DNA of 64,000 nt from Blasia pusilla (lineage: Eukaryota). The notes under the pieces are model-generated. The model was not told where the DNA came from, did no database searches, and saw nothing but the letters and a program-made list of their open reading frames with translations. Each line of letters starts with the position of its first letter. The stretch's first letter is position 1. A program made the position numbers and the translations under genes. Positions 12,896 to 58,338 of this stretch are shown here, piece by piece. Location of the stretch: NCBI GenBank assembly GCA_050084515.1, contig CM114271.1:46624001-46688000 (forward strand), read 5' to 3'.

Positions 12896-13330
12896 CTCAA
12901 GTTTAGAATAAGGGCTATCCCCTTGAACCATGAGAAAAGAAGGATGGGAATACAACTAAACTCTTGCACCTTGCATAATGATGGGGATGAAACCTCTAGT
13001 CATTACTTGGAGTTCACCCCACATTGAGCAAGAGCATATGCTCATATTGCTAAGCTTGTCACACCAAACTTGTTCAACACTTTCAGTAGCCTTGATTCAT
13101 TGCCCAAAGTTGATGTGCTAGTAAGTAATGTCTATTGGAGATCCCTATCAAGTAAAGTAGATAGTGTGGTGAAGAGTTTCTTCGTTGACACTTGGAAGCT
13201 CCGTAGCATCACATTGTTTGTTTAGCACTCATACTATATGAGAGTGTCTCCCTCCTCTCATATGGTACCTTCTCTACTTCTTCCTCTCTCTACACCCATC
13301 CCAATCTCAAGCACCGTCCAAGGTCGCAAG

Positions 13331-13540
<210 letters not shown>

Positions 13541-13877
13541 ACATACATTTATCATATGAATCCTAAAAATCTATACATGAACGATTTGACACACCCAAAT
13601 CCTTAGATATTAAATATGCTTTTAGCTCTAAAATCTACAATTCCATTGTTTTAACATAACATTCACTCCCAACATGACTTGGATATATTTAATATGCATG
13701 CACTTCATGCTTCCAAAAAAAATGTCCAAATCAAGATACACTCAAACATAAATTTGTGATCTCTACATTAATTGTAGCCTGCTATTAATGCAAAAGATTT
13801 CATGCTCAAGACACCAACTTAGCCTTGTTATAATATATATCATGGATCCCATTCTCAAGGTATGATATCTAAAGATG

Positions 13878-16800
13878 TGTCGTGTGCATACACATCGCTG
13901 TCACTCAACACACACACAAACACACACGATCCCATATTATTTCATGGCATCCAAACAACGAGACAAGAAGTACCAAAATATCTCCAATAAAATAAGATCC
14001 AATCTCTCTCAACACCATAGCTCTCAAATGTATGCACTCTCATATGTCTCTCTCAATGTGAAACCTAACCCCCTCTCCTAATGAGAGGCTTGGGTTACAC
14101 ACACAAGGCAAGCAAGACCATAGCTCTGCCGCCTCATGCCAAGAGAGAATGAGCTCTCAAGCTCATTCTCTCTTTGTCGAACCTCTTGGCATGAGGCATT
14201 CTCTCTTTGTCTCAAGCTCTTGACCTGATGTAGGAGGTCAAAGGCCACTAACAAAAAATAGAAAGTGGATCATATATTCAAAATGGTACTTACCTAAAAT
14301 AGTGAGTTCTTCAATATGGCTCCAAATGAGCCGAAATGAAGGCCTCAACAGATCATCCTCGACCTATTGAGCCTGTCCTCCACTACTCATGGAGGCGCTC
14401 TACTAGATCTCATCGATATATCCTAAAAGACGTGACAATTGTCGTGCGCGTACACATCACTACATAACATACATCGATGTTACCGAACACACACACAAAC
14501 ACACACGATCCCATACTAACTCATGGCATCCAAACAACGAGACAAGAAGTACCAAAATATCTCCAATCGCCCCCCTAGTTGGTGGACCTCAAATTGTCGT
14601 GGTTGGCGATGGGATACAGATTCAGTAGGCAAGCATCCTTAGTGTCTTTCTCATTGTACTTGCTTTTGTATGGCCAAGAGCCAGATTTACCTACGGCCAT
14701 TCGTCAAGATGTTGGTGAGGTGTTGAACCTTGATGATCCTGATGTATGGATGCAAGCATGTTCTCAGAGGGTTGAGTTATTTCGGAGAGTGATGCCCATC
14801 ACGTTTGAGAACTTGGCGATTGCGCAACATCGGGATACATTGAGGTATGCGACTATTTGGGGAGGTGGTTATCGACCACCTCCCCAATTTGAGGTCCCAA
14901 TCTCCTAGGTGACATCTCTGCAAGCCATACTTGCATAATCCTCTTCACCGTCTGCACAACCGGCTCAGCTAGTCCATTTGCCTTAGGATGATCTCGCGAA
15001 TTAGTGCGGTTGTCGATCAGTGTCTGATCACACAAGGCTTGAAATTGCCCACGGAACTCTATATCTTGGTCTGTCAACACCTCAACTGGTGCACCATAAT
15101 GACTCAGCACTCAATCTAGGAAGGCATACGCTACTCCCTCACTTGCTTTGTCAGGAAATGTAACCAACTCTATCCACTTTGAGAAGTGCTCGACCATCAT
15201 CAACACATAATGACAATGGCGCTCCGTCAAAGGCAAAGGTCCTGCAAAATCCAAATTCCGTCTATAACCTAAACCCATGATCGGAAGTGGATGCAACTGT
15301 GAAGTCGGAGCATCAAACGATGCTCGAACTTGATCACACACCATGCATTTGGCAACAAACTGCTGAACGTCAGTCTACATGCCTCGACACCAATACGAAA
15401 CCTGGAGCAAGCAGTACGTCCGCTTCACTCCAAAATGACCCAACTCTTCGTGGGCATCACGCACCAAATGTGCTTTCTACAAAGTATGAGGCACTACACG
15501 CACTCTACCACACTCGCAACACATGTGTCCCGTCCCACCAAAACTGTCTGGCTCGCTATAGGATCTGATCCTGCTCTCTAGCATCCATTATGCTCGCGAT
15601 GCTGCCAGTACGTAGGTCCTCCAAGACCACTCCATCATCGTGAATATCTCGGCCACCTGTCTTCTCCTCACGGGCCTCTGGATCTGAGGACTCTCCGTCA
15701 GACCTCGCCATAGAAGTCTCAGCAATTTGGCTCTCCATAGCCAACAAGCCCAAATAGGCTGACACATGCCATCTTGGCACCAACTCCTCATCACTCTCAC
15801 TATGCCAACGAGCTCTAGTTGCATCTCGCTGACTCAGGCATGGGTTACGGCTCAAACCATATGCATCTTGGTTGAGCATCACAGGTCTATGCACCACCTG
15901 GAAGTCATACTCTTGCAACAAAAGAGCCCACCTCGCAAGCTTTCCTGTAAGCTTGTCGGACTCCATCAACCACTTAAATGGCTGATGATCAGTAATGATG
16001 GTAAAGGGATTGCCAAATAGATAACATCTGAAATGTGCGAGAGCCCACACTGAAGCCAAGCACTCACCCTCATACGAGATATACTTTGCCTCTGTAGGGT
16101 TGTTTGAGCGATTAGCGTAAGCCACCACGAACTCTGTACCATCATTGTCAAGTTGGGTGAGCACGACTCCGAGCCCCAACATGCTCCAATCGATATGCAA
16201 ATGGAAAGGATGCCCCCTCATCGGTCTCCTCAATATGGGCGGATGTCAAACTGTCCTTGAGCATCTGAAATGCTCTCCTGCTCATCCCCCCAGTGCCACT
16301 CTTGATCCACCTTGGTGAGCAAGGTCGGTGGCTTTGCAATCGACCTAAAACCCTTGACGTATCGTCGATAGAAGTCCGCCAATCCCATGAATGCACAAAC
16401 TCGACTCACATTTATAGGGCATGGAATGCGTGAAATAGCCTCTACCTTCCTCTACTGCACATCAAGGCCCCCTGGGTATATCGTATGACCCAAGTACTCA
16501 ATCTGGTCGTAGAAGAACTTGCACTGGATGTAGCTTCAGCCCATGTAACTGCAATTGTCGGAACACCTCCTCTAGATGTTGCTCATGCTCCTCAACCATG
16601 GGGCTAAAGACTATGATGTCATCAATATAACACCTAGAAAAATCCAGACCTGTCAAGATCCTATCCATGATCCTCTAGAAATCATTCAGGGTGTTCTTTA
16701 ACCCAAATGGTAAGAACCACCATTGGTACAAGCAATCCTTCCCGTGAGGATCGATGCCTCAAAATGCCGTTTGTTGCCTGTCCTCCAATCTAATAGGCAG

Positions 16801-19800
16801 TTGATAGTATCCGGGTCAAAGATCTAATGAACTGAAGATCTTTGCATGCCCAATAACATCAAAGATCTCCTCATGAGTGGGCATGGCATACCTATCGGAT
16901 TTTGTCTACCGATTGATAGGTCAGTAATCTCCACACATCCGCCTATGTGTCTGCTTGCCATGCACGTCCTTCTTGGCGGGCATGATAGTGGCAGATGCAT
17001 ACTCCCCATGCGACATCTCCACTAGTCTTCCTCCAACCAAGTCCTGGCTCCTACTCTGAATCAAAGCCCTCTCCATGTCACTGTACCTGTAGGGTTTTCG
17101 GAAGATCAGCGTGTCACTCGACAACTTAATGCAGATCCTTGGACCCTTCAGCATATCCAAATCCTGCATACTAAATGCAAAACAGCTCCTATAACTCCTA
17201 AGGAACTGGTGTATGCGGCGCCGCTCTCCTCCTGTCAACTTAGGGCCCATATGTGGCTCCCAAATCTCCATCGTGCCTACAGTAGGACTCTCCGGTATGG
17301 GTGTCGGTGGTTGCTATGGTGTAACCCCGTCTCGGACAACAAAACTCGATTGCTCTCCTGCCACCAACTGCAAAATCGGATCTCCATTTGCAATACCCGG
17401 AACCACGCTCGATGTTGTGTGTACCATCTCCTGGTGTACCTGCAAAACATTCCAAGAAGTCCAAGGGTGTCTCTCCCGATCACCCCTAGTGTGTCGATCT
17501 CCTCTAGTCAACCATTGCCTCGACCGTCTTAGTAGGCATGGGGCTTACCAACGCAACTTTTGTGATCTGTCGCTCCTCAAACGACGTTGCTAAGCTACTA
17601 CTAAGCTGAAAATCTATGTCAAGCAGTTGAGGTACATTCCTTTATCCAAGACATGACGTTATGATGCCTCTGGTAGTGATAATACTACCTTCATTCCTAT
17701 GGGGAATCCCATCACTTGCTCTTGCTCATCGGCGTTAGGCTCCACCAACCTCTATGCCTGGTCATCCCAAACCAAGCCAGGTTCGGCCTCCTTGAATGCA
17801 TAGGAAGTGGGAAAACTCACCAATGTGGGAAAGGCTACTCGTGGCATGCCACTCTTGTGAACCATAATCCATAACCATAACGAGGGTCGATCATCATGCC
17901 TCACTGCCTATGATCGACGACCCGGATCCAATATACAATCCACCAACAAATCATAGGGACGCTCCACTCTCGCATAAGCCCTCCGCAACACCTCAGGTGG
18001 TACCAAGTTGGTCCACCAAAGACACGGGCGGTCTGCTCTAGAACCTACACTCGTCGCATCTAACAACATTGCCGGGCCGATCCATGCACGCACCTTATGT
18101 GCACTCGTCACTATGCGGGACCTTGAATCGCCCAAAATTGACACATTCTCCAAAATGCATATTGGAGAAAGAGGGTGATGCTCATGTAAATATCGCAAAA
18201 TCCGCATCATCTCCCAAAACAACCTGGACCGAGTGTCAGCTAACCCGCTACCTCGTCCAACATTCAATTGGCCCTGACATGGCCAACCAAGTCTATGGTC
18301 CCTACCTGCTCCAAGTCATGCGCCCCCAACAATGAAATGTCCCTCCGTAGGGAACTCTGGTAACCCTTAATGGCATACGCAAACAACAAGTTGGGAAAAC
18401 AGAGGCGTAACTGCGCCACATGGTGAAGTGAAGCGCGCCTCGCAATATCATCAATTTCCACATACAGGTACTGTTCCTCGTGCACTCCACCATGCAAAAC
18501 AACACCTAACCCAATACTGATCCCTCCAAAGAGATCCAACACCCAAATATCCTCCTCTAGGATGCACCACACAATCGGGTTGATGTCCAAAGGGGTCATA
18601 GCAGCACTCCTGCCTACCTGGGGTTCCTCTGACCCGTCACACTCTAGTGCAAACGTCTCGCTCCATGTGGTGTGCACATGCTCAGTGGCTAAGCGTCGAA
18701 GCTCCTCAGTCGAGCCCCAAAGTGGCACCTCTCTTCCACGGACTGGTGAGACTATCATGACACTCCTCTCCATATAAATGTCACGAACAAGAGTATCCTC
18801 TGCATGGATATGTCCCTCAATCAAATCAATAGGCCAAGTGATGGCACTTCTGATTGTTGCTAAGGTCGCCATCTCTTATGGTCGTCGCTCGATCACTACA
18901 CCTGTGAATCGAATGGGTAATGAGCTAAGGCGCCCATCACCTGACTGCCATCCTGGTTTGTAGGACGCTGATTCCTCCCAGTAATCCAGGGAAACCCCAT
19001 CGGGTATAACACTTCTCCACCAACCAAGACATTGTAGGACTCTACATCAATCACTATCGCCTTGGCTCATCTCTAGGATATCCCAGGAAAATCCTCACCA
19101 CAAACTCATGTCGGGTGATATACTGTGTGGTACTCACTCCACCCAAGGATGTCTGTATCTGGAATGGACAACGCTCCACATCGGCTCTCGTCAAGCCCAA
19201 TATTCTGAATGACGCTTTCCCCAACATCAGGGGTTGCGCTCTTGAATCCAACAAGACGCACTGTAGACTAAAAGCTCTACCTCCTAGACTCACCAACTAG
19301 AAGACATCTCCCCAATTATCCAGAAAAACAACACCAAGAGAAGCCATGGCACGCTCTACCATGGGTCTAGCGGGCATCTCCGCCATCCTAGCAGCCGCAG
19401 CCTGCCATGAATTTGACGAATACAGCCCAAGCATCAGCTCCAAGGGCAGGTCCATCACCTCCTCTACAATCACCTCTGAACGTGATGCAAGAACTCCAAC
19501 TCCACGCTCACATAGTGTAGCAGCTAGCTCAAAAAACTCGACAGGGGTACCTCCCAACGTCATAACATAGGAAGCAACAAATAAAGGAGCGCAGTACACA
19601 ACGGTGGCCGCCCACAACAACGTGCTCAACACATGCCCCTCCTGAGCATCAGCAATAGGAGTCATTGCACTCGCTTCTCCCATCGCCCTCCGTGCCTGCA
19701 CACCAACAACATCACCAACTCTCCAGGAACTCTTTATCAGGACCCATCCATGGGGTCCTTATTGCCTCGAACAACGTGAAAGATTGAGGAAGCCTGGTCT

Positions 19801-22800
19801 ATTTCCTGTCTTTTCCTCGATGTGGATCTAACTCTACGGCTGCTCCATGCGTCATAACTGCAGCGGCTTGCATCTGGGCAACCACACACATCCAACCAGG
19901 ATCCTCCATATCTTTAGCTGCTCCATATGATGTCGATGCCATGGATCCGGCATTGGGTAACCTCAATGCCATAGCAACAAACTGCTCCTGTAGCTGCTGT
20001 ATCTGAGCAGCCATCCCAGCCTCACGTCCGGCGTCTCCCTCGACGCGTCTAGGTGGTGGGACTCTAGCTCCTCCACGGGCAGCTCCACCACCCTGTCGAG
20101 CAACTCCAGCTCCTCGTCCCCCAATGGGACCACCGGGTGCATGATCTCTAGGCCCATCCGGACCGGCTACTCGCTCTAGTGCCCTCTCTGGCCCTCGGTC
20201 CGAACATAACTCAGCACGTAAACTGAAATACCTGGCGCGTGTATGACCATACCTTTGACAATAGTCACACTGATAACCTCCTGGTGCAGCACCATCTCCT
20301 CCTTCATGTTGAGGCATAGGTCCACGACCCTGACGAGTGCAATCACGTTGATGATGGGCTCCACCACATGACCAACAAGTAATTGTAGGGGGCTACTGCT
20401 GAGCCGCATATGAAGGTGCAAGTCTCTATGGCACGGCCTCTCGGTATCCTCCTTGAGCTCGTGGTGCCACAATCGACCTATCTCGGAGTCCACGTTGCTG
20501 CACTAGTGGTGCAAAGAATCGTGAGTGCTCTCGCCCAGAATCCATGGTGGCTATGCTCTCCTCCGCCATGTTGCGCTCAATATTCTTGGCGGTCCTAAAA
20601 ACATTTCTCAACGTAGGAGAGGTGTTCATAAGAAGCACCCTCTTCCGCACCCATATCCGTAGGGTCCGGTCCAACATTGTGTATCATGACTGGATAGCCT
20701 GAGCCTCTGTCACCCCCTGAGTGACGTTGATCAACCGATGCAAGCGAGTGTAAGCCTCACACAAACTCTCACTTGGGCACCTCTGGAAGTCGTAGATGCT
20801 CCACAACTTCTCCGTCCGTACCCCCTGGTAGCTCGCCCTCAACTCAGTGAAGAACTCAACCACGTGGTTGAACAAGGGATGAACCCGACTAGACGGTGCA
20901 ACTGCTCCAGTGCGAGTGACCCCTCCTAAAACATCACTAGTGGAAGAGGAAGTAGCCTCTCCTGACTCCTCCTCCTTATCTAGGAACGGCACCGTCCATG
21001 ACAGATAGTGTGGATCATAGTAGAGTCGCCATGCCTCAATCTCATCGACATATCTCTGGGAGAACTCATGATAATCGTCCGTGGGCGCCCCCTCTAAATG
21101 TTGGAACATGCGGTTCCAGGCTGTAAACGAGTTCAACTCTCTAGAGTTCCGGCCCGCTGTGAGTCACACAAAATCCTAAACTCCGCAATGAAGTCGTGTA
21201 GCTCTATAGTGCCTACAACACCCAAAAACCTACGCACTCCTCTACCGCGTTCGTCCATCTTGTATGTCCAACTGGTAGGACCACTCAATATGTACGGTGG
21301 ATCACTAACACACTCCTCTACATGCTCCCCCTCATTTGAAGATAACACAGAAGGAGATCGAGGTGGTCTTTCACGTGGAGACCCTCGAAACCACTCTGGG
21401 TAAACCCTCCAGAGCTACTCTCAGGTCCACTACCTTGCCTCTTAAAATCTTGAAAGGACGCCATGATGGCCCTTGTGCCCCTCTCACACGATCACTCTCA
21501 ATCTTGCAAGTAATCCCTCAGTCACTAAAACTAAAAATGCGGCACTCGATCTACACTCTCTCATTGAGACCTGTGCTGTGTGGCAACAAGCGACGCGGTC
21601 CGGCAAATCAACTGATATATCATCTCATCGACAAACCATCCTCAACTCGGGACATCCCATAAAATTCTATGTCCCCTAAACCCATACATCATTGATGCTC
21701 TCAGCATCAGCACAAAACAATTTCCCAAATAACTTCCCAATATCCGGAAATCCCTCACACATGGAGGGTAAGAGACCAGAATGGGTAACCTGACAATAAT
21801 GTCAATGTCGCTCCTCAGAAACTCCAAATCTCGAACCCAACTTGGTTGTGAAGACAACTCCTTCAATCAGCAAGTCGTACTCCTCTCGTACTAACGCTGC
21901 TCAAACCTCCTCGATGTGCGGTGCACGTTCACCGGTTCGATGCGGCACGGAACGGCTACAAATGACATGGCACTCGAGAATGGGATGCGGCACTCAACGG
22001 CATACCCTCTCTTCTCCTTAGTGAAGGAGTACCTCTACGATCGAGACGGTGCGGTGCGGCCACAAGCGGCGTGACGTGGCAATCGGAGAGCGTTGTGGCT
22101 ACGGGCGTCACGACATGGTACTTCATCGTCGTTGAGCGGCTACCAATCACAACATAGCAACATGAAATAAAAACTCAAACACCATAACTCGAGGTCACCT
22201 GCCATTGGTGGTTGATGACAAAATTGCAATCACAGTGGTGGCCAAACCAAAGTATGTGGTGGCGGCGCAAGTCAGAGAATCAGCGATCATCGTGGAATAC
22301 CCTCCACTCCGTAATGGCGGCAATGGAAACCAAGAGTGGACGACGGCCGAACGCGGCTCTTAGCAGTGCTATGAGGCGGCGGCGGCCAAAGGTGGACCAT
22401 TGATAATGACGGAGGATTGTTGATGGTGATGGTGATCGTCGACGATGACGGTGACTATGACGGCAACGGTCGTCGCCGGCGCGGCGGTTGGTTTAGAGTT
22501 TGAAAAATTTCACCCTTAAAATTGCTTAGCAATGGAAGTTTTGTAAGATTGACCATTACTTTTTGTTTGCAACTTCAAATTGCACACCGTTTGCTGCACA
22601 GCTTCACGATCTGCGATGGCGTGAAAAAACATTTTGAATCAAACATTGCTGTAAAAAGTGACAGGGACTGTTGTAAAACCCAACGTGTCTTTCTCCTACA
22701 CAAAATTCGATAGTGCTTCCATGCTGATTTCTCCCAATAAAAATGTAAAACCAATGAGAACATAAATCATCAAGCTACATGGTGCTCTCGAAAGCACTGG

Positions 22801-23552
22801 CATGGAGTTATCCGCCCCCATACTCAATTCCTATCAAAAATTGGGCAGCCGCTTCCGCGTGCCACTCTCCCATACAAAAAATCAGCAAAGCAAAACAACA
22901 AACTCACACGGCTCTTACTCCATTGAGCACTCTCATGAGCCATGAAGCGGGGAACACGGTCCTCCAACCTACACCAAACATCGAACAACCAGCAAGCTCC
23001 CTCATCAAGCTCTCTCACTCACTCATTCTCTCTTCGTAAAATAAGATCCAATCTCTCTCAACACCATAGCTCTCAAATGTGTGCACTCTCACACGTCTCT
23101 TTCAATGTCAAACCAAACCCACTCTCCTAATGAGAGGCTTGGGTTACACAAACAAGGCAAGCAAGACCATAGCTCCGCCGCCTCATGCCAAGAAGTTCGA
23201 CAAAGAGAGAATGAGCTCTCAAGCTCTCTCTCCTTGAGGTATACCCCTCCCCACTCCCAAGCTCTCTCCATGGTAACCTATGCTCCCAAGTCACCTCCTT
23301 GGCTCTTGACCTGATGTAGGAGGTCAAATGACACTTACCAAAAATATAACGTTGATCATATATTCAAAATGGTACTTACCTAAAATAGTAAGTTCTTCAA
23401 TATGGCTCCAAATGAGCCGAAATGAAGGGAAAACCTGCTCTCTCAGGTTTTCTGGGGCCTCAGTAGGTCATCCTCAATCTATTGAGCCTGTCCTTCACTA
23501 CTCATGAATGCACTCTACTAGATCTCACCGATTCATCCTAAAAGACGTGACA
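13878..23552 (-). mobile_element. Near-complete decayed Ty3/Gypsy-type retroelement (gag-PR-DNMT-RT-RH-INT) with split direct repeats and 4-bp TSD GATG
   Basis: GATG at 13874-13877 and 23553-23556 flanks TGTC...GACA termini. A1 23552-23037; coding region; CTAGGGGGGCGA 14578-14568; B1 14567-14440; AT; A2 14437-13988; B2 13988-13878. Motifs: gag knuckle CDYCQRYGHT, PR LLDSRAQ, RT RRMCGDY and YIDDIIVFS, RH LHIDWSMLGLG..YEGECLA..TDHQP..KLARWAL, INT VEHFSKW and LTDQ. Confidence 0.93.
17590..18548 (-). pseudogene. DNMT3-like C5 cytosine methyltransferase domain inside retroelement pol (copy 1)
   Basis: Motif I VLDLFGGISIG, II YVEID, III RDI, IV GWPCQG (across a small deletion near 18290), VI ILENV, VIII SRADRPCLWWTN, IX EPNADEQEQVMGFP. 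Stops and frameshifts present. Confidence 0.88.
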
Positions 23553-23710
23553 GATGAGCTCCATAATAAGCTTTGCCAAGGGTATACCTTCTTGCTTGAA
23601 AACACCATGATGCTCACATACATGCATAGATTATGCACATGCAATAGATCCCGAAGTACGCAATCTGCATGATCATCTTGATAAAATACCACATAAGATC
23701 CTCTCTATAT

Positions 23711-24456
23711 TGTCATGGTAGATTAGGCGTAGAGCGAGATAGTATCGAGGCCTTAGAGGGATCTTATACTTCCCTATTTTAAGAGGTCATATATTACCTG
23801 CTCTTATGAGGTGACCTACGAGTGTAGGTCACCCTTTCTTTTATGAGGAGTGGCAACCTTAGAGAGGTTGACCCTCCTAGCCATGTATATATGACTTCAC
23901 TTGGACCTATAAGGTCAAGGGTTACTTGGTCGTTAGTCCCATTAAGAGACCACATATGTAGTTGTTAGGGAGTTAGTACTTATATATTACAAGTCATTAG
24001 TTACGTGCTAGGGGGGAGGTGATCTATGTGTGTAGGTCACGCATGGAGGTGCCCAAGGGCGGAATATCTCAAAGGACGCTCATTTAGAGCTCATCTTCCT
24101 TACGATTACACACATGTTGGGATCCGTCAGACCCTGCAGCTTGCATGTATTGAGTATGGATTCTCTCTTGAAGAGTGGGCTAGGATTGATAGAAGATCAC
24201 ACATATTTTGGAGTCCTTTGTATACTTTCTTCTACTATTACAACAGTGTGTATGGATATGGATGTTTAGATGAAGAATATTTGGTCAATTGCAAATTTCA
24301 TTAGAGTTTACAGTCCATATTCAACTTTATTGGAGTCGTGTGGGGCTGTCCAGTCGTTCATGTGTAGATATATTAGGATTTATAGGTAGATGGATTTTAG
24401 ATATGTGTGTGCATGAGAGCCAATTTATGTTGGCAACAATGTCTATTTGCACGACA
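23711..24456 (+). mobile_element. Solo terminal repeat (solo-LTR-like unit) with 4-bp TSD ATAT
   Basis: Starts TGTCATG, ends GCACGACA (same termini style as the split-repeat elements), ATAT on both sides. Homologous along its length to 52962-53706. Confidence 0.85.
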
Positions 24457-27400
24457 ATATGAACCAAGTGTATCTACAGGAAGGAAATGCCTCACAAAAG
24501 CTATAGGATACCCTTATTATTGGCATATCTTACTTCGCCCCATTGGCTCAATGGCATCTTTGATCATATTCACTCTGTTCTTCCTTGAATTCGAAGAGAG
24601 CTTCATTGTTTCTTATTACAATATCATGATTCTCTTCTTCAAGAAGATCTGCTTCTTGATTTGAAGATAGGTAGTAGGTTAGAGATCTTCAATTGTCTTA
24701 TTTATAGAATTGCACATATTAGAAGAAACACCACCTAATATTTTCTATCAAACTTATCCATGCATGGATACACATCTATACTATTATGGGAGAGTACCCT
24801 CTTGCCCGTGCAAACACCTCTCCTTGAGCCACGTGGCGATTTTGGCTAATAAAAATTTGATTTTGGATAATCGTAGTTGTCTGCCAATCTAAGGGTTTTT
24901 TTGAGTGGGACATTTACAACCATCATAGTACTTCAAAACGGTTTTTTTGAACTTTTAAAATTTGTCATGGTGACAGTTATGATCGTAGTAAGGAGATCCA
25001 TCAATGGCAAGATCCTTTTTTTAAGCTTTTAAATTATGTCGTGCTAACCGTTATGATCGTGATAAGGTAGATCTGTTGATGACGAGGTGCTTTCCCTCCC
25101 AGAGTTGTGCAACGGTTTTTCAGGTTATCGTACTCACATCCGACTGTATTTATACCGTGCATTCAATGTAGACACTCATGACGTAGATACAATACGCACA
25201 TACTCACCCAGGTAACCATTTCCACCAACATTGCAAATTGATGTTCCCAGATGATTACAAGTTTTTGAGATGCTAGGCATATGATTGATGTACTCTAACA
25301 ACCTATCTGGTTTGTGAGCTACAACTTTCAAAGGAGTTTTCGAGTCTCCCAAAACTCACAGACTCAACGTTCCTCCACCCAAGAAGCTCGCAACTCGAGT
25401 CGCTAGGAGATCAGGCTGATTGTTCCCCTTCATATCTCCAACACTCCCATGTTGACGGTTCCTCTACATTCCCCTTCAGTTTCAATAGCACTCCCGATTC
25501 GACTTAGGTCCTCAGCATCTCCCAATTTGGAATAACTCCAGGTCCACCTCCAACTCCAGCTACGCTCTAGTTTAGTCGCCTTCTATTTGTTCGACCTATG
25601 CCAGCTCCACATTCTCTCTACAACCATGGCTTCCAACCCTTCCGATAACCAATCGAGCTACATACAAAAACATCAAAATGGCAACAAGGATAACTGCAAA
25701 GAAATCAACACATAGAAAGGGAAAGGGAAAGGCTCCATCCAAAACCACTCCATCAAAGAAATATTATGGTGTAAAGCCTGCTGATCTCAAACCTTGGGAG
25801 AGTGGAAAATAGTTTCCCATCTCTCAAGAAGACTGTGTTTGCCTGAGCATGTGGAAGAAGTCACACTTCAGAATTAGCCCACCTTTGGGGACGAGACTCA
25901 GCCCGGAGCATCCTCCAGACTTTGAAGGTGCAGTAAAGGACTCTCTCCTAGTGGGAGGAGGGCCTCCATTATAAAATAAAGGATATCTTCTTAACTCGGT
26001 TGAGGGGTTGGAAAAATAATTTCAAATCGAAGTCCAAGAAAGTCCCCAATGTTATGTAAGGGGCCCTGCAATTAAAGACCATGCACATTCCACGCAACAT
26101 CTGCAAAAAAAATTCTCAAAACACCTCATCCCAACGTTCAAGAACATTGCTCACCTTCTTAGAAGAGGTCGCCAATCCACATGAACGTGCCCATTAGCTC
26201 TACCCCACAAACCAATGGGACTAAAATAGTTCAGAAAGGGAAAAAAACATCAAGGTGTTATTATAAACATTGAGATTAGGATCTGACCAAACTAGGAGCC
26301 TAGGAGCTTCCCCATCTATAGATCGGAAAGAGTTAGAAAGATTGACTTGCATGTAACGCTTGGTACATGGAAATCAAAGCTTGGTTGGAAATGAAAACTT
26401 AGCTGAACATTACTTTGTCTGAATGTGTGGTTACTACATCAGCAACCCCCTCTCTCTCTCTCTATGTATAGAATTACTCTTCTCGAGTACTCCTGATATG
26501 AGCAACCATGGTCACCGCATTTCACCTACTGGCTCCTCTCGAGTACTCTAGCGACAAGCAATAAGGTTAGAATGTAGAGCACGGATGCGAAAACATGCAC
26601 AAGCTCGAGAGCATAAGGACACTAAGCCTTAAGTCCAAGCAGGAAAGGCGAGGAAACCTGCACGAAGTCTCAATGCTTTGTTGAGTACAAGCCCATGCCA
26701 CCCCCAAGCAATCGCAGTAACCTATGCCACGTGCAAGTAATTTCAGCAACCTTGACGAACAAACAGGAGCAGATTCCAAGGCGAGTACGTAGCAAGATGA
26801 GTCTTGAGCAAAGCCATAGCCAAGGAAGGACCAAGGGCGAGTGGGTGGGCGAGCGAGAAAAATCCTATAGCTAAAAAAGGACCGAGGGTGGGATGTTGAG
26901 AAAAATCACAGAGGATTGTCACATCTGGGTAGCCGATAGGCCGAGATTTATCGTGGATAGGGCGTAGAAGCCAGGGGACTATCTTGAGTGTAACTTTGTC
27001 CCACTGTGTCGGATGAGGTTGAGGATAGGTCCATTGTGTTAGGAACGTTGTTTCTGACAACTATCATGTTGCGGTCTTTCAAAACCGGGTGACTTGTTGA
27101 CCAGGTCATCCGCCCCTGGTAACCTGTGCGCGCAAGTTACCAGGGGGAGGGCTATTTTTAGGGGAAGAGCCTTTTGGCTCTTCCCAACCCTATATAAGAG
27201 AGGAAGATGGATTTCCTAAGCCATCTTTCTCATGTTGGGCCGTTGGAGCATCTCTCTTGTATGTGTGTGAGATAGGACTAGGGTGCTAGCATCCGGATTC
27301 CTTGATAGCACAGGGTGGACGAGGCTCGATATGCCGATCTAGATTGAGGAGTGGAGTTTTAGGCCGGGTGTGTCGTTCTTACTACTCTTTATTTTTACAT

Positions 27401-28543
27401 GGGAAAGTTGTCAAGGAGCTGGTGGGAATTTGTTGTTTGCAGGTAGGCAAGCGAGTTGCCTTGGTCGAGAGCTTCCGGAGACGCGTGTGTTGCGTGTGTT
27501 GGTCATTTTACTGTTCAGAAGGTCATGGGCGGAAGCGCTATCCGGTTTTCTCAGATTTTTGGCTGGTGCAGATTAACAGGGGACATCAGCTGAGTGTAGC
27601 AGGACGTATGGCGTCAGTTGTACACAAGTGAGGGTCGGAAAGAGGAGGAGGCGGTTGGAAACTAGGGCACGGACGGGCAGATGGCGACGCTGTGCCCCCC
27701 ACCCCCTTTTTTTGGACGTGGTTGGCGCCTACCACGCAACATGGTAACCGAGTCGGGCGTACGTGGTAGCAATCAAGGAGAGATGGTTGAGTTCAGACGG
27801 CGTTGAGTCAAGTTACATGCCGCGTGTGGGGATAAGCGGAGAAGTTTGCACGACATGATTTTCTCGGACGTGACGAGGATTTGCGAGAGTTGACGACGGA
27901 GTGTCAGTAAGTATGATGCCGACGGGTTGTCCGCATTTGTTGACAGGAGGATTGACGTATTGGTCGAGGAGAGTATTTTGTTGCGGACGTTGTCGTGTCA
28001 CATGGAGGAGTGCGTGTTGACGGTGCCGTAGGTTGGAGGGCGTGATCAGGTTACCCATTCGAGTCCCTTTTCCCGCACTTGTCGTGTGTGATTGAGAGTG
28101 TTGGGTATCGGGTAGTAGCAGGTGCGAGGTGGATGTAGTGATGGTGAGAGGTGCGGTAAGAGGAGAGGAAGAGAGGAAGATAGGAGAGAGGAAACTACCT
28201 TCAACCGAAATAGATACTTTTTTTTGAAGAGAGTTTCCGTCGGGTTGAAGAGAGGAAAATTTTTGTTTGAATTTTTTTGCACTTTTTTGTTCATATATTA
28301 AGCAGTCCCACAAATTTTTTTTCCTCTTCCATATTTTGGCAACCCCTCTGAGTCCGACGAGTTGCAAATTGCACAAAATTTAGAAAACTGAAAAATCAGT
28401 GGAATCATAAGTGTGGAACCAATCACTTTTTCCATCCAAGGTCTGGAAAAAATCTATCATTTGCCCAGGGCTGAATAGAGTTCAAGCTCAAAGTGAAGGT
28501 TGAGAAAAAAAAAAAGTACAATCTAAAACCTCATTTTGCATCC

Positions 28544-31500
28544 TCAAAGTGGTTTGTTTAAAATACTTCGAACTTCTTTGAGGGACAAAATTGGTTGGTG
28601 GATTCCTACTCCTACCTCCAACTCTCTTAAAACTACCAACAACACATAGTACATGTGCTTACAAGGGAAATACCTTTTGCCACTTGTCTCTCTTTGGACA
28701 AAGTCATCACATGAACATGTGGGAAAGCAACAGATGTGCACCACATACACCCCTGTGACACTTGAATTTACAGTGTTGTTCCTGACCCAATACATCCTTC
28801 CTATTCCATTGCCACTCAAGACATCTTTCGTGGCGATGATCTCCATTTTTGCCTCCCCAGTTGATGCAATTTGCTTTGCTCTCTCCACCGTTGGCCTGCA
28901 CATTCTGTTTCTATTCACTCCATTTCTAGACTCAAACAGAAATAATGGATTGAGATCATCCTCCTTCTCCGGGTACATGTTGACATCAATCTTGGGTTGA
29001 ATACAAAATGCGAAGGTCTCTGTAATGCGAACATGCTCCGAACTTCCCCCGTCTACGAGTTCCGGCACTTGTAAGATTGTCCACTTCGTCTTGAGTGCAG
29101 TTCATGCCTGCGGCGATGGGCCAAATCGTGGGGGTATTCCCGGGGAGCTCCAATGGCAGCCGGATAAGACTTCCGGAAAGCGCAAGATTCATTTGGGCAG
29201 AAGAAGTACTTCAATTGATGCCCGGTCCTCGTGAAACGATCAAAGGTTTTGAGTCCCCAAAACCCAGGCAATGGTCGTCCAGTCCTTGTACAGTTCTTAT
29301 TTAGGAAAGTGCCGCATGCTCTCCTAATGCCATCGATCCGCGCCTGCCAGGTGGGTCCACGCCCTGGGTTGCTCCGAGATATATGCCACCGTTTAGGTTG
29401 CAATCCACCTCCATTACCAGAATCCCATATTGTTGAACCACCCCAGTGACAAGATGTTGCGAACTTCCAGCAACGGAGGGCTTTTGACATAAAACATTCA
29501 CTGATTTTGGAGAAGTAACTCCATCACGGATTTGGGACGGGTCCGGGGTCCCCGAATACCTGGGCGGTGTAATTTCCTCATCCAAATCAATCACCGGATT
29601 CGTTCCTCGATCTTCGCCTCTTCACTTGCTCAAGTCAAGATACTTATCTGGTCTCCACGAGTCTCGTTCGGACTGCTCTACCACCATCTGTATGGGACAT
29701 CTTGAAACCCGCCCACGAATATCCCCACCTATGTGTACGTCTTGCTCGAGTGGAGTTCCAGCTACGCACCGGTTGAAGGCTTTGACATACAATTTTTCAT
29801 CACCAGATCTCACAGCCGCCCTGACATAGAGCTCGTAGATCAACGGCCCCTTTCCTTTTGTTATGCCTTTTGTGAGGAAGATATGGGATGCTGCAGACTA
29901 TAGTATTGCTCTTGCCTGGTCTTGTTGGCATGCCTCCACAAGTGAAATTCGTTGGCATGCTTGTGACGACCTCCAAGAGGAATGAACACTTTCTGCTCCA
30001 CTTGTGTTGGGGCAGAGGGCATTTTCATGAACGTTCAATCCCTGCAACGACGGCAATGTTAGAAGGGAACGAAAATAACTCTGGAGTCAAAGAAATAAGC
30101 GACCTGTTGGAACCAGATGGGTTGTAGGCCCGAGATATCCCATGAACGACTCTGCGACCCGTCGGGTCCCGACGTGTTGTAACCTTAAACCCACCTACTG
30201 CAACCCGTCGGAACCGGACGGGTTCCAAGGCCGAGGCATCCCATGAATGACTCTGTGACCCGTCGGGTCCCGACGGGTTGCACACTCGGGTTGCACCAAA
30301 CATCTGGATGCAACCCGTCGGTTTCCGTCAGGTTGCACCCTCGGGCAACCCGTTGGTTTCCGTCGGGTTACACACTCGGGCAACCCGTTGCATCCGACAG
30401 CTTGCTTGGTTTCTTGGGTTTGAAATCCATATAGTTCCCATGCTTCTCACCCTGAGCTACAACTTTACAAACAATTCTCAGCGTGAGCTTGACAAGACAA
30501 AATAGTGAACTCACCTGCCGCATGAAGTTTCCCCATTGTCTCATACGTAGAGTCTACCAACTCAACCAAGAGCACAACTCTTTGTACTTCCCCTCAATCG
30601 CATGCTTCCTCCACCACCCATGAAGTTCTTCCTGGCATTCCATGGCCTGCTTCAAGGTTTTGATGTCCTTGCAGCGTTGGAGTAGAGTGACATGCTCTGT
30701 CCTCTTATTCTCCTTGATGCAAGATTTGGTGTACCGGGTCACAGACTGTTGCCAATGGAAAGCATCCGACCTTTCCCTCTCCGGTTGAACCTCTCCACCC
30801 CAGAACACTTCCCGGATAGCAATCCACCCAGGTTGTGCATTGTCCGCCATGAACCCATAAATTTCCGGAGGTGGCCTTTTGTTTTCCTTCACCACCTCCA
30901 ATAAGAGTAACCAGCACATCTTCAAATTGCCAACGTCTTCTGCCTTTACTTCACAGACAAATATAATTTTGAGTCCCTTCTCCACATGGTCATAAACGTG
31001 AGCACCCATCGTCAACCATCCGTTCAACACTCAATAGCAAATATCAAACCTTACTCAACTCACGTAAAGATCTTCCCCTTCCCTCATTCGATCTATAAGA
31101 TCGAGGCCACTCGACGGACCTGTGGTTGACATTTTGAAGACATAGGCCCTGGATCCCTCGCCTCCTTGGCCCATGAACCGCCATCTCGAATGAACGGAAA
31201 TCTGGAGTTGGCCTTGATTCGGCGATGGCATCCATTTCGCCGTCTTTCCATCCGTAACTCGTATTTGACGCAAAGCAAATTCGGAAGCATTCAGGATCAG
31301 CGAGAAATGCGAGATTCTCCTGAGTTGTTTCTCCTCAACCGTAATCTCGCTTGTCCAGGGATTCCAAGCAATTTTTCACAAATTTGTGATGCCGTTGTGA
31401 GCTTGATCACTCCGGGCTTTGAACCCGGAGAGTTTGTGTAGACCTCGGCTACTTTCTTCGCCACATCCTCCTTGATGTGTCTTTGAATTGCATCGGTCAC

Positions 31501-32341
31501 AGGATGAGTGTGGGAGCCAACATGGAGTGCCAGCCTTGTATACTTTGACGTGGAGCCCAAGTCGTGGACAATGAAAAATATGTATGCAGGACACGCTCCA
31601 ACGCATAAGGGCGATGCCTGACAATGAGGATATCGATGGCCTCCAGGCGGTATGGTGGCACCGACCGCGTATGGAGTTTCTGCATTCTTGGGAGGGAATT
31701 GTGACGTATTGACTCGCCTGTTGCGCTCTAGATACGGGCATGCTGGACTTCTACACTCCAAGGCTCCCACGCATTGGCGGCGGGAGACAATCCAAGGACC
31801 ATCTGGAATTGAAGCACTGGTCCGTTGAAGCCTGCACCATCGATGATAATCGATTTTCGTCCCATACCCTTCAGCGCCCTCCATCCTTCTTTTGAGCAGG
31901 AGCAGCAAGTGGAGGCAACTCAAAAATGCAATTACCATCATACGTGGGCGGCAGCTCGTCGACAAGAATGCGCTTGAACATTTTCAAGGCCAGAGACGAA
32001 AGCAAACTATTGCCGGATACTCGCAAGAGGAACGAGTAGGCGGACAGAGGGCCCGACTGGTGTCCGACAGATCCACTGAGGTTGATAACATCCGGAATCT
32101 CTTCAGGAAGAACAACATTGTTACAAGCGTCGCGGTTGGAGTCGGCCGATCTGCAGAGCTTGGAGTTGCAAACGAGAGCTCGGAGCACTAGGAAATTCTA
32201 GACCGTCTACTTGGGAAACAGACGAATTCAAGGGCAGGCCGTAAACTCTGTATTGACCATTTGGTAGAGGTAGGAGATTCCATACTTTACGGTCTGAGGT
32301 CACTGGCTGGACCGTCTCACCTATTATGTCTTCCGTACCAT
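28544..32341 (-). pseudogene. MULE transposase: GCM/WRKY-like zinc finger, DDE core, SWIM finger; one intron; stops and frameshifts
   Basis: CVGALEC..C..C..C..HVGSHTHP (GCM-like); VRFDIC (D1); FMADNAQ..AIREVF..DAFHWQQSV (D2 + CxxH-like). Intron 30514-30042 joins NFMRQ|GLN..CPNTSGAESVHSSW (E). C-terminal CSCDDF..PCKHMYYV is a SWIM finger. Confidence 0.85.
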
Positions 32342-35300
32342 CCACCCTAACATCTTTGGATACAAAGATGGTTCCAATTTGGAGAAGAAATCAAGCATGT
32401 AAAAATTTTCATCCACTACTATGAAAGACTCACGAGCTTGGGGTCGAATGATTTCTGATTGAGGAAGGGCCTCGGATGATCGCCACAAGTGAGCTTAACA
32501 TAATTATCCATTCCAAGAAGATTCCAACGAGAGGAGACGAGAATGAGAATGAGAATGAGAATTTTTAATTTATAGTGAATAGGAAAAGATACACGACATG
32601 ATTTTTTACTGACAAGATGAATTCGGTGGATGACATTGTCTGACACAATGGATCCAATTCTGTAACACATTCAATTCTGTTGCAATATGTTACCGGATTT
32701 GGGAAGCAAAGGGTTGCGCATCACACTTCTATTCCGTCGGAGTCCTGGTAACTGAAAAATTACCCGAAGCTAACCGAAGCCTGCAACCCGTCGGCATCGG
32801 ACGGGTTGCACACTTCTGCTAAACATTGTCGAGGCGAGCAACCCGTCGCTCTCCGACGAGTTGCTCGGATACCGCTCCTTCTTGCCCGAAGATGCCGGAG
32901 GCGTGCAAACCGTCTGTTCCCGACGAGTTCCGCGGGTGCCTCACCTTTTTGCCCAAAGACGGCGAGGCGTGCAACCCGTCGCCCTCCAACGGGTTGCGCA
33001 AGGGCCTCGCCTTGTGGTGCAGCCAGCCGGACTCCGACGACTTGCACGGGAAGCCCTCGTTCTTAACCCTTGATGAGGGAAGCGTGCAACCCAACGGTCT
33101 CCGACGGATTGCCCAAGATACGTCCCGTTCCCGTCCCAAACACGGCGGAGGCGCGCAACATGTCGGTCTCCGACGGGTTGCGCGGGTACCTCGCGTTCTT
33201 TTCCGAAGACGACGGAGGCGCTCAACCCGTCGGTCTCCGACGGGTTGAGCATGCACGTGGCGACGTACCCAGGATGGCGGAGGCGCGCAACATGTCGGTC
33301 TCCGACGGGTTGCGCGGGTACCTCGCGTTCTTTTCCAAAGACGACGGAGGCGCTCAACCCGTCGGTCTCCGACGGGTTGCTCGCGACGCGGGTAACGCGT
33401 ACCCACGATGGCGGAGCCGCGCAACTGTCGGACTCGACGGGTTGCCATTTTTCACGTCCGGACTTCCGTAACATCCGGCACGTCGCCGTCGAAAAGACGA
33501 TGGGACCCAACGGTTAGCCCAACGGCTAGAAAAGTATAAATAAGGCAGAAATCGCTCATTTCCGGTTTCTCATTTTGCGATCTTCATTCCTCACTCTCCC
33601 GCGTAGCAGCTGATCAAATACGTAGGGGCATTTCACACGGCGACACATCGCGAGTCGATAGGAGGGAACAAGAGCGAGACTGTTCGACCGAACGACAGCG
33701 AGACGCTTCGACTGAGCGATCGCGGGACGATTCGAGCTACCCATCAAGGCGATTCGAGCTCCCCATCTCGACATCAGCAAGGCGACTGATCAAGGGATTC
33801 GTCGTGGACAGTGGAGGCATTTCCGGAAAAAATGACGAGGAAAAAGTCACAAGCCAACAAGTCTGGGAGCTTCATTCCGAAGTCCATTAGGACTCCTGCG
33901 TCAGCTTCTCCTGGGTTCGGCGAATGAAATTAGGCAGCAGGAAATCGAGGAGCGGGAAAGGGAAGCGGAGATGCACAACCAAGTGCTTCTTGCGAGACGT
34001 TTTCAAGAGGTGCTAGATAAACAGAACGCAGAGGCTGAGACGTCGCAGGCCTTGAAGAAAAGGATCGCCAACGAAAAGAGAGAAAAGAAGCGTCTCGACG
34101 CGTCGGTGAGGAGGGCAGAATTGGCTAAAGCGAGGAGGGAAAAAGCGATAGCCATTGAAGATAGCCCAACCCGTCCAACCGCAAGTGTTGAGATGCGGGA
34201 AATGTCCCCCACGAAGTCCGGGGACACAATCAACATAGTGGAAACGCCAGAAGTTGAAATCGATGACGACGAGGTCATGAGGACCGCCAGCGTGGAGATG
34301 GTGGACATGGCCGAAGAAGCCAAAGAGCGGTCATTCTTGACTCCAAGCCCGGCGGAGGACATCTACCTCTATCGGATCGACGAGTTCCCAGTTGATTTTC
34401 CAACTTCTGTCTCAGACAAGTTAGCTGGTCAAAAAACCGACCCCATTTTTGAGCGGGTAAGAGAGGATCTGGGTTTTTTGAATTATGTGAATTGCAATTT
34501 ATTGGGAATTCAGTGTAGCTTATTCATCTTGTCCCGGTTCTGACAGGTGGTAAAGCAGATGGCACTCATGGAGGGCCACAACGCCCCGAGGATTCCACTC
34601 TGCCAATTGCGGACAATGGAATACGTCCGCGAAATTCAGTCGGACGAGGACATCGCGAAGCTTAAACAATCGGCGGCGACAACATCCTACGTCGATAGCT
34701 TTCCTCCCTTCTATGTTCAGCCTTACGACGAGCATGGAACCCAAGCTCTGGTTACAGAGGAGGACTTGGAAAAGCTCGACACATTCTGGAGGATGCGAGA
34801 CCAGGATTTCGAAGGCAAGTTGAGGGCACGGAATTCATTTGGATGAGGAATCTACATTTCTTCATCCGGGATGGAAATCACAGAGTTCATGGCGTGGACC
34901 AAGTTTGCGGAGGAGCGGCCCAACTCATTGGAGGCACATTTTGCGTGAAGGCGGTGGTCCTTCACCCATTCCCTCATCACATGGCGACGGTGGAGATGGC
35001 AATGCATGCCATGAACACGTGAGTATCTTTAACATTTACGCAACTCGCCGGAGTCCGACGAGTTGCTTGATTGATGAATGGGTTAGGTTTGTTTTTGCGA
35101 AAGCAACTCGTCGGACTCACGGGTTGCTCGACCGCACGCTTTTTTGGATGTTTTTTAAGAATGCAACTTGTCGGACTCCGACGAGTTGTTTGATTGACCA
35201 CAGATTTAATTAGTTTTTGGCCCAAAGCAAACCGTCAGAGTCCGACGGGTTGCTCGACTCGCCGCCTTGTCAGGATGTTTTGAAGAATGCAACTCGTTGG

Positions 35301-48400: not shown

Positions 48401-48985
48401 TCCCCATCAATCCCAGAAAATCTGAAAAAAATCTTGAAAAAAACACAAAACGTCGCCTCCGCCCACGGCCTTCCAAACAGAAAAATGACACACATCTTTC
48501 TCATGTTAAAATAAAGAGTAGTAAAAACGGCACTCCCGGCCTAAAACTCCACTCCTCAATCTACATCGGCATATCGAGCCTCGTCCACCCTGTGCTATCA
48601 AGGAATCCGGACACTAGCACCCTAGTCCTAGCTCACACACATACAAGGGAGGTGCTCCAACGGCCCAACATGAGAAAGATGGCTTAGGAAAGCCATCTTC
48701 CTCTCTTATATAGGGTTGAGAAGAGCCAAAAGGCTCTTCCCCTAAAAATAACCCTTCCCTTGGTAACCTGCGCGCACATGTTACCAGGGGCGGGTGACCT
48801 GGTCAACAAGTCACCCGGCTGTAAAAGACCTCAACATGAAAGTTGTCAGAAACGACGTTCCTGACACAATGGACCTATCCTCAACCTCATCCGACACCGT
48901 GGGACAAAGTTACACTCAAGATAGCTTGCTGGCTCCTACGCCTTATCCACGATGATCTCGACCTATCGGCTACTTAGATGTGACA
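45479..48985 (-). mobile_element. Inverted, truncated third copy of the same retroelement (5' repeat, gag, protease)
   Basis: 48985-48496 is the reverse complement of 26917-~27406. 48100-45482 is the reverse complement of ~40762-43362 (ORF 45630-46028 has LLDSGAQ; CDHCHRYGHTRDRC knuckle). Confidence 0.9.
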
Positions 48986-49546
48986 AAGCCTATCCCGAAC
49001 CTAACCCATTTTTTTAATTAAAAAATATCATCCCATATTTTCTTAAGGCGTAAATATTTTTAGATGTTTTAAAAAAATATCCCTCCATATTTTTGTTTCT
49101 TTCCCATATTTTTTCCCTAATCTTTTTTTAATACTATTTTTTATTTTTTATTTTGAATTTTAAACACTTAAATTTCCCTTCCTTTTTGCACTTCTTTTTC
49201 CTTTTTCTTGCTTGATTTTTTTAAATGTGGCACAAGATTTATTTTCTTTTTTTTGTCTTTTTTTTTTCATACTTTGGCAGGTTTCTTTGTATGTATTCCT
49301 CCGATTGGTCGAGCCTACCGATTAATCAATAGTTTTGTGGTGTGGTATATAGATGGCAAGTGTCTTTGGGTCATTATTGGATGTGGAGAGGCAACCGCTT
49401 GGTGTTCTGACAAGTACACCAATTCCACGAATATTTCAAGGAGACAAAAGGACGAACAAAAGAACACCTCTCCAATGTAAGCACCTTTTTTGTGCCTTTA
49501 TTTCCATTTTTATTTATTTATACTCTAATCATGCCTTCTCCTAAAA

Positions 49547-52955: not shown

Positions 52956-52961
52956 GACAGT

Positions 52962-58142: not shown

Positions 58143-58338
<196 letters not shown>

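Follow-up and report, generated by a model that had tools for sequence, protein, structure and literature searches.

Split direct repeats, ordered A1-B1-A2-B2, have been defined for retroelements (PMC4157794), and a replication model is available for DIRS elements (PMC7192593); by title and abstract, the papers on such repeats among the matches listed concern tyrosine-recombinase or unrelated elements only. A Gypsy element with DIRS-like repeats, KnitGypsy-Dnmt3, has been described from the green alga Klebsormidium nitens (de Mendoza et al. 2018, PMC5890265), and we found no other paper on KnitGypsy. Self-priming with no tRNA primer-binding site (PBS) is known from the Tf1/sushi group and has been predicted for the Tcn1 clade, which is reported from mosses and club-mosses (Neumann et al. 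2019, PMC6317226). Here we describe E1, an element of 9675 bp in a 64,000-nucleotide (nt) stretch of Blasia pusilla DNA (assembly GCA_050084515.1, contig CM114271.1, positions 46,624,001 to 46,688,000; the whole stretch is called the window below). E1 is a decayed, old copy of a bryophyte lineage of Ty3/Gypsy type that carries a DNA methyltransferase (Dnmt). By their described features, E1 and KnitGypsy-Dnmt3 are elements of one kind, sharing a C5 DNA methyltransferase inside the Gypsy Pol, repeats in the order A-coding-B-A-B and a streptophyte host, whereas the hosts of the E1 lineage are liverworts and mosses (PMC5890265 for the algal element). The layout was published in 2018; the bryophyte members are new, as are the self-primer, a long terminal repeat (LTR) that is out of register with the integrase ends, an inherited palindromic integrase site, 4-bp duplications and two insertion forms. 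For KnitGypsy-Dnmt3, the main text of PMC5890265 gives no PBS, polypurine tract (PPT), termini, target-site duplication (TSD) or replication model, and no Klebsormidium-named protein was present among the matches listed for the lineage proteins. We found no earlier description of the bryophyte members, their priming or their junction logic in the literature searched, Repbase and the supplements of PMC5890265 aside.

E1 occupies 23552-13878 on the minus strand, as determined by direct reading and with a repeat finder, and on that strand consists of A1, PBS, genes, PPT, B1, AT, A2 and B2, starting with TGTCA and finishing with CGACA. The first-pass annotation, made from the letters of the window, had described a split A-internal-B-A-B layout in which A1 is followed by neither B nor a TGG PBS and the whole unit is bracketed by a 4-bp TSD, GATG. 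Each of these statements was borne out: the layout by both approaches, with the B boundaries shifting by 1-2 nt, the absence of B and TGG on the sequence from 23036, and the duplication at the two positions given below. The features of E1 are as follows.

23553-23556, no strand: TSD on the 5' side of E1, GATG on plus and CATC on minus; the same 4 nt stand at 13874-13877.
23037-23552, minus: A1, left repeat of E1; begins TGTCACG and holds a TATA-like box at about 23243-23240 and the predicted transcript start.
23203-23215, minus: predicted self-primer CTCATTCTCTCTT, 28 nt past the TATA-like box; exact reverse complement of 23034-23022.
23022-23036, minus: PBS adjoining A1, CGAAGAGAGAATGAG; no TGG and no B.
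14567-14578, minus: PPT ctaggggggcga, adjoining B1.
14440-14566, minus: B1, with final bases CGACA (repeat finder and direct reading).
14438-14439, minus: spacer AT between B1 and A2, the middle of the GACA-NN-TGTC junction.
13988-14437, minus: A2; begins TGTCACG.
13878-13987, minus: B2, right terminus of E1, with final bases CGACA.
13874-13877, no strand: TSD on the 3' side of E1, GATG on plus and CATC on minus.

According to the repeat finder, A1 and A2 are 82-94% identical by segment, and B1 and B2 are 93% identical.

Metagenome contigs were scanned by alignment of lineage proteins, which yielded at least 80 host-plant loci, with 534 of 600 stretches confirmed. For the locus counts, the A and B repeats were mapped and copies with the same flank were merged as one insertion; forms were called automatically and then by eye, with L050, L051 and L072 placed in the long form, and the form counts leave out L026, L027 and L060 (truncated B) as well as L029, L034, L048 and L057. 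The 3' end PPT-B-NN-A-B, with NN a spacer, was found at 28 of the 80 loci listed, which represent 19 independent insertions in at least four diverged groups; together with E1 and E2, a diverged second element clipped by the window start, this gives 21 independent 3' ends of the long form. The short form, in which PPT-B is followed by unrelated flank without A2-B2, makes up 21 of the 42 independent 3' ends. At the other end of the element, 14 independent 5' ends were available (11 loci and 3 in the window), and B adjoining A1, or B-NN ahead of A1, was detected at none of the 14. Among 10 complete elements, the 4-bp TSD was perfect in seven (E1 CATC, L002 ACTA, L007 TACA, L014 AAGG, L037 CATA, L044 TGTG and L076 ATGT), matched at three of four nt in L004 and was absent in L055 and L074. 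Such duplications accompany the long form and the short form alike.

Because the same order recurs in E2 and in 19 independent insertions, the A-genes-B-NN-A-B layout is not a product of chance; it is real and lineage-wide, and it is no private rearrangement. The opposing account, that E1 began as a canonical Gypsy element with LTRs of the A+B kind, from which the 5' B and the PBS were lost and to which a stray 3' B was added by private rearrangement, draws on the heavy decay of E1 and on the inversion at 14594-14878 that is its own. That account is refuted by the absence of B from all 14 5' ends together with the shared 3' layout in E2, the 19 independent loci and several diverged groups; A+B stands at the 5' end of no copy, the junctions are base-exact across copies, and we assign the account practically no probability. 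The first-pass annotation had itself named, as the finding that would overturn it, a majority of copies with two A+B LTRs and a PBS, and the 14 5' ends show the reverse.

We scanned E1 with Pfam using both stop-to-stop frames and three sense frames with stops written as X. On the minus strand, the domain order is a C5 DNA methylase fragment, RVT_1, RT_RNaseH, Integrase_H2C2 and rve, and the DDE-integrase Gypsy coding proposed in the first-pass annotation holds, as listed here.

17911-18315, minus: C5 cytosine DNA methyltransferase fragment, region of motifs I-IV (PF00145, E-value 1.4e-5, 25.1 bits, cutoff 22).
16525-16929, minus: reverse transcriptase, RVT_1, with a broken frame (E-value 3.5e-14).
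15907-16257, minus: RNase H, RT_RNaseH (E-value 5e-33).
14997-15473, minus: DDE integrase, H2C2 zinc domain and rve core (Integrase_H2C2 E-value 4.5e-12; rve E-value 1.7e-5).
14594-14878, plus: integrase C-terminal segment, inverted in E1 alone (plus/plus match to 989-1273 of E2).

In the decayed E1, the rve match reaches 25.4 bits, below the cutoff of 32.6, and it lies above the cutoff in E2, L025 and L037; the E1 integrase shares 74% DNA identity with the rve-positive E2 copy. E1 is riddled with stops and frameshifts, and this copy itself is dead. Its inversion is not shared by sister copies of the same species: opposite-strand joints were seen in DNA and RNA reads, and at the inversion borders (14584-14598/14885-14898) 36+40 and more DNA reads from other copies carry them. 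Elsewhere in the lineage, Pfam recovered the order reverse transcriptase-RNase H-integrase in L025, L037 and L076, Integrase_H2C2 with rve in E1, E2, L025 and L037, and PF00145 above the cutoff in the E1 frame, E5 (a further family in the window), L025, L074 and L076. The Pol order of the lineage is protease, Dnmt, reverse transcriptase, RNase H, DDE integrase and PHD finger, and intact relatives of approximately 2000-2240 amino acids in public data contain rve, RVT_1, RNase H, DNA_methylase, H2C2 and PHD. The translations of E1 and E5 hold motifs that we take to be methylase motifs I, IV (PCQ) and VI (ENV). In chromoviruses, the integrase usually ends in a chromodomain; here a PHD finger takes its place (window 1520-1654; L037:9566-10687). 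The PHD finger and the Dnmt domain suggest chromatin-directed targeting or self-methylation.

The same scans bear on whether the integrase call is mistaken and E1 is a tyrosine-recombinase element of the DIRS/Ngaro/PAT kind, as its repeat layout, and that feature only, would have it. No Phage_integrase match was obtained in three sense and 35 opposite-strand frames of E1, nor in 27 frames of four related loci, whereas Integrase_H2C2 and rve were found in the four elements named above and the TG..CA ends are flanked by 4-bp TSDs. Tyrosine-recombinase identity is refuted on these grounds, and the chance that it is correct is negligible. As for Ty3/Gypsy membership, the Pol order, the DDE integrase, TG..CA termini with a short TSD, and a PPT with a PBS are all present; two complete identical LTRs at the inserted ends are not, the 3' ends being B-NN-A-B or B alone.

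The closest named relatives of the E2 integrase-PHD frame belong to Marchantia polymorpha, Calypogeia fissa and Sphagnum, and among its eight named matches, six are 82-88% identical and two 79-80%. These matches place the source of the window among the bryophytes. Named hosts of related proteins are Marchantia, Calypogeia, Riccia and Sphagnum, i.e., liverworts and mosses. Between moss (Sphagnum) and liverwort (Marchantia, Calypogeia), the lineage proteins are 80-90% identical, which is high for hosts so distant; this identity suggests strong constraint or horizontal transfer.

We then turn to priming. The bases directly after A1 are the exact reverse complement, over 9-16 nt and at an offset of 0-2, of a segment within A. 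Pairing of at least 9 exact nt at offset 0-2 was found in 8 of the 14 independent 5' ends, spread over five families (E1, E5 and groups 1, 3 and 4) with five different sequences.

E1 family: after A1, AAGAGAGAATGAG; inside A, CTCATTCTCTCTT.
E5R family: after A1, ACATGAGAAAGATG; inside A, CATCTTTCTCATGT.
Group 1 (L014): after A1, CTCAAAGAACTATGTT; inside A, AACATAGTTCTTTGAG.
Group 3 (L074): after A1, TCTAGAAAAACT; inside A, AGTTTTTCTAGA.
Group 4 (L055): after A1, AATCACCAAAAGT; inside A, its complement.

When control windows were drawn from the next 1 kb, pairing as long as that observed occurred in 0-0.4% of them, and for E1 none of 295 reached 13 nt. The complementary segment lies 119-179 nt ahead of the end of A and 24-30 nt past a TATA-like box (TATATAAG in E5, TATAAAG in group 1 and TATAAAAG in group 3); because of this distance, the self-primer segment coincides with the expected transcript start. 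TGG is absent at offsets 0-5 past A1 in all five families, and from this absence together with the self-complementarity we conclude that there is no tRNA PBS; ARAGORN found no tRNA gene within the window. Five sequences that each keep their pairing at one place amount to covariation, and this pattern indicates Tf1-like self-priming at the predicted transcript start without a tRNA. The tRNA-independent priming suggested in the first-pass annotation gains support from this covariation across five families. A further copy resembling the PBS lies just 5' of the predicted primer and forms a hairpin with it, as in group 1 (CTCAAAGAAC-ATA-GTTCTTTGAG); a similar primer hairpin was observed in A2 of E1 and in E5 (examples at L014:10500-10535 and window 14141-14185).

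Compared to Tf1/sushi and Tcn1 elements, the E1 lineage likewise lacks a tRNA PBS and has a predicted transcript 5' end complementary to a site beside the 5' repeat, whereas those elements are described with ordinary full LTRs and a chromodomain in place of the PHD finger, Dnmt domain and permuted repeats seen here (PMC6317226).

The positions of the priming sites define where reverse transcription should begin and end. In every group, the PBS adjoins the last base of A1 and the G-run PPT adjoins the first base of B1. In ordinary LTR reverse transcription, the positions of PPT and PBS set the repeat that is built at both ends of the complementary DNA (cDNA), so with the PBS at the end of A1 and the PPT at the start of B1 the LTR of reverse transcription is B+NN+A rather than A+B. 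The junction between A2 and B2 is, exactly, the base ahead of the PBS fused to the base after the PPT, and by its sequence it looks like a point at which two cDNA ends were joined; a DNA run labelled with the same species contains 36 sister-copy reads in which 23037, the last base of A, is linked directly to 14566, the first base of B. At the same time, each of the inserted termini, TGTC... and ...GACA, corresponds to one half of the internal B-NN-A junction, where the integrase ends appear to stand back to back within the LTR as the palindrome GACA-GC-TGTC. Across the lineage, the boundaries of reverse transcription and the integrase ends are about 115-180 bp out of register.

The two junctions differ in their constancy. 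The B-NN-A spacer is 2 nt long in 28 of 28 locus rows (27 measured by script and L072 read directly) as well as in E1 and E2; it is mostly GC, with the variants AC, GT and AT consistent with C-to-T decay, and in its ancestral state the junction, GACAGCTGTC, reads as a perfect palindrome over 10 bp. Of 15 copies from groups 1 and 3, by comparison, four have an A-B junction of different length, and some of the variants retain nucleotides of the PPT or PBS.

L008: -22/+3.
L038: +1.
L063: +2.
L064: -2.

This difference fits an A-B junction that is made anew in each cycle and a B-NN-A junction that is copied through RNA. A fossil at L005:3361-3878 (the same in L006) reads B1-GC-A2-PBS, then the reverse complement of A 1-180, so that an inverted A start, ...GGTCATGACA, closes the element ahead of the flank; it looks like inserted plus-strand strong-stop DNA (B-NN-A-PBS) whose 3' PBS had primed on its own primer segment.

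The family is transcribed in the sense direction, with strand assigned by the stranded-library convention. Three RNA-seq runs with the same species label gave 1393, 1664 and 1400 reads at 90% identity or more, mostly 90-95% identical to E1, and since most are only this similar, they derive from sister copies. The strand bias is strong (35.3 versus 0.82 in bin 15036-15369) and is reversed within the inverted segment of E1. The DNA run gave 40133 reads, 35970 of them at 90-95% identity, which marks the family as multi-copy.

The best model for these observations, and one that we hold with slightly better than even confidence, is that end-joined cDNA or a 2-LTR circle is opened by integrase at the internal palindrome. 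Transcription would start within A1, about 25-30 nt past the TATA box, and run through B1-NN-A2. The first 10-16 nt of the RNA would fold onto the site adjoining A1 and prime minus-strand DNA as in Tf1, with no tRNA, and the G-rich tract directly 5' of B1 would prime the plus strand, giving a cDNA of the form [B-NN-A]-PBS-genes-PPT-[B-NN-A]. The integrase recognition ends would then lie not at the cDNA ends but inside each LTR, as GACA-GC-TGTC. Joining of the cDNA ends, in a 2-LTR circle or its equivalent, would produce the A-B junction; integrase would cleave the two strands of one internal palindrome at positions 2 bp apart, leaving CA-3'OH ends, and the permuted A-PBS-genes-PPT-B-NN-A-B would be inserted with a 4-bp duplication. 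This would be the only permutation with R both upstream and downstream, and it alone could be copied again because a second R is kept downstream. The first-pass annotation had proposed that integrase processes the internal CA-NN-TG junction; the site stands, in that the inserted ends are its two halves and carry 4-bp TSDs, and the cutting step is one that we infer from those ends.

Several findings weigh against this route. Complementarity to a segment of A is missing from 6 of the 14 5' ends; these differ by point changes and, from their sequences, look like decayed copies. When the predicted 5' leader was folded, its first 15-20 nt were paired with the PBS whether the minimum-energy or the centroid structure was taken, but the ends of the fold were picked from the complementarity itself, so that the folds are illustrative and no independent test. 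Six RNA reads span the A-B junction, with mixed strand, and the transcript end may lie past A2; the read depth, resolved in 30 bins, locates neither a transcript start nor a poly(A) site. A symmetric 2-LTR circle should open at either palindrome with equal frequency and also yield A-B-NN-A-genes-B, which was found at 0 of the 14 independent 5' ends. Speculatively, that product might collapse faster, its 340-bp repeats being only 117 bp apart, or the cDNA might be asymmetric, e.g., through a plus-strand break at the PPT. Finally, the short A-genes-B form seen at 21 of the 42 3' ends fits the model but is explained equally by recombination between B1 and B2; such copies could be insertions of linear or 1-LTR-circle cDNA, or later B1 x B2 recombinants.

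Some of these same points are accommodated by copying of the DIRS/Ngaro/PAT type, in which RNA running from inside A1 to inside B2 would copy the whole A-genes-B-NN-A-B unit, the tips would be restored on a B1-NN-A2 template, and a circle with a new B-NN-A junction would be opened by integrase in place of tyrosine recombinase. The order of the repeats is exactly that given for split-direct-repeat elements (PMC4157794, PMC7192593), such a scheme explains A-genes-B-NN-A-B only and never A-B-NN-A-genes-B, RNA reads crossing A-B exist (n = 6), and B1 x B2 recombination could have produced the A-genes-B copies. Under this scheme, however, the exact placement of a PBS at the end of A1 and a PPT at the start of B1 in every group would be functionless, the expected pattern of junction variation is the opposite of a varying A-B (4 of 15) with a constant B-NN-A, and the L005/L006 fossil has a 3' end of A-PBS. 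We consider the scheme unlikely, though it is the main rival of the model.

The equal numbers of the two forms raise a different alternative, in which the basic element is A-genes-B without repeats and B-NN-A-B arises by nested or tandem insertion or by recombination with a solo A-B. A-genes-B copies do carry 4-bp TSDs of their own (L002, L007 and L044), and the independent 3' ends stand at 21 versus 21. Nested insertion does not sit well with a spacer that is constantly 2 nt and shows no 4-bp duplication, with a TSD that brackets the whole A1...B2 unit in E1, L014, L037 and L076, or with A1/A2 and B1/B2 identities that are similar within a copy; an A-genes-B element, with no downstream R, should moreover be incapable of the first strand transfer. 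This origin is highly improbable.

If integrase does open joined cDNA at the internal palindrome, a broader interpretation follows, which we advance tentatively and hold at somewhat below even confidence: the integrase attachment sites may have been relocated from the tips of the LTR to a palindrome that lies within it and is inherited, with insertion proceeding via end-joined or circular cDNA opened by integrase and with the permuted product as the only one competent for replication. LTR retrotransposons are taught with PBS and PPT boundaries in register with the integrase ends. In circle junctions of the insertion sequence (IS) type IS3/IS911, two recognition ends of a DDE enzyme stand next to each other, 2-3 bp apart, and are cleaved when the circle inserts; for retroviruses, the circle junction as attachment (att) site was an early proposal, later abandoned. 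The E1 lineage resembles IS3/IS911 in its abutting recognition ends with a short spacer, although those are DNA transposons and its own junction is located within an LTR and passed on through RNA. On the internal-palindrome reading, productive insertion would by analogy resemble the opening of circle junctions by IS-family transposases, and split direct repeats would be a circularly permuted LTR, independent of the enzyme of integration, which would account for the repeats of Ngaro, PAT and Toc too.

Compared to Ngaro, PAT, Toc and Viper, the lineage has the same order A1-genes-B1-A2-B2 and probably also passes through a circular or end-joined intermediate, whereas those elements are described as using a tyrosine recombinase in place of a DDE integrase with TG..CA ends and 4-bp TSDs. 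To our knowledge, they make no target duplications. Troyka, which the first-pass annotation had offered for comparison, proved unrelated and not relevant: as described, it occurs in animals only, and its LTRs are ordinary, with CG..CG at the termini and duplications of 3 bp (Kojima 2025, PMC12440569), it shares only the status of an atypical Gypsy relative, and each diagnostic feature differs from the E1 lineage.

The lineage opens the question of whether an internal or circle-junction site can be the normal substrate of a retroviral-type integrase, along with those of how split direct repeats originate and how element ends are regenerated, and bryophytes offer a tractable plant system for them. 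Its DNA methyltransferase and PHD finger bear on the interplay with host silencing. Programs that recognise LTR elements by a pair of full LTRs and a tRNA PBS likely miss such elements, or set their bounds wrongly, in liverwort and moss genomes.

The other copies in the window are E2 and two members of the E5 family.

1-2411, plus: E2, diverged second element clipped by the window start; integrase 379-891, PHD finger 1520-1654.
1822-2411, plus: 3' end of E2, with PPT 1822-1830, B1 1831-1935, TT, A2 1938-2305 and B2 2306-2411.
26917-27410, plus: E5L; A opens TGTCACA, with a decayed PBS directly after and no B.
48493-48986, minus: E5R; A 48986-48507, with PBS ACATGAGAAAGATG at 48506-48493 directly after.

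In E2, the PPT reads ttagggggcga, B1 closes with CGCACGACA and A2 opens TGTCATG. E5R starts TGTCACA and has internal sequence directly behind A; its PBS ACATGAGAAAGATG has an exact complement at 48681-48668, 24 nt past TATATAAG. Over 26917-48986, two 5' portions of the E5 family stand face to face with arms 89-93% identical, the left copy on the plus strand from 26917 to about 45480 (into the reverse transcriptase) and the right copy on the minus strand from 48986 to 45482. Both outer ends are TGTCACA, and the flanks GGAT and AAGC show no duplication; the pair may have arisen as a snap-back cDNA or from two elements that a deletion brought together. E5L is split by a 12.7-kb insertion (28045/40762), and the block 28046-40761, which gave no Pfam match on the plus strand, contains tandem and inverted repeats.

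Among the loci outside the window, L029:1480-1820 and L034:3260-3605 share one flank and represent a single event, in which the integrase-PHD frame is joined directly to A, entered at about position 177, and A in turn leads into B. The entry point into A lies just past the self-primer site; PPT and B1 are lost together with the first half of A2, either by simple deletion or by a first strand transfer that went wrong.

In searches of the window by motif, ACGACANNTGTCA gave four matches against 1.5 expected, of which the match at 52955 is due to chance and sits in an unrelated LTR family, and the PPT motif by itself showed no excess over chance. Arrays of one short tandem repeat with a period of about 6-10 nt occupy 13230-13667 and 58038-58358, with mutual identity of up to 100%, and one of them sits 200 bp off the 3' end of E1. 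An unrelated LTR family is present at 23710-24454 and 52961-53704 (745 bp, 79% identical, starting TGTTG and ending ..GACA); behind the copy at 52961 lies a minus-strand gag frame that encodes a CCHC knuckle, and the copy at 23710-24454 lies 158 bp away from E1.

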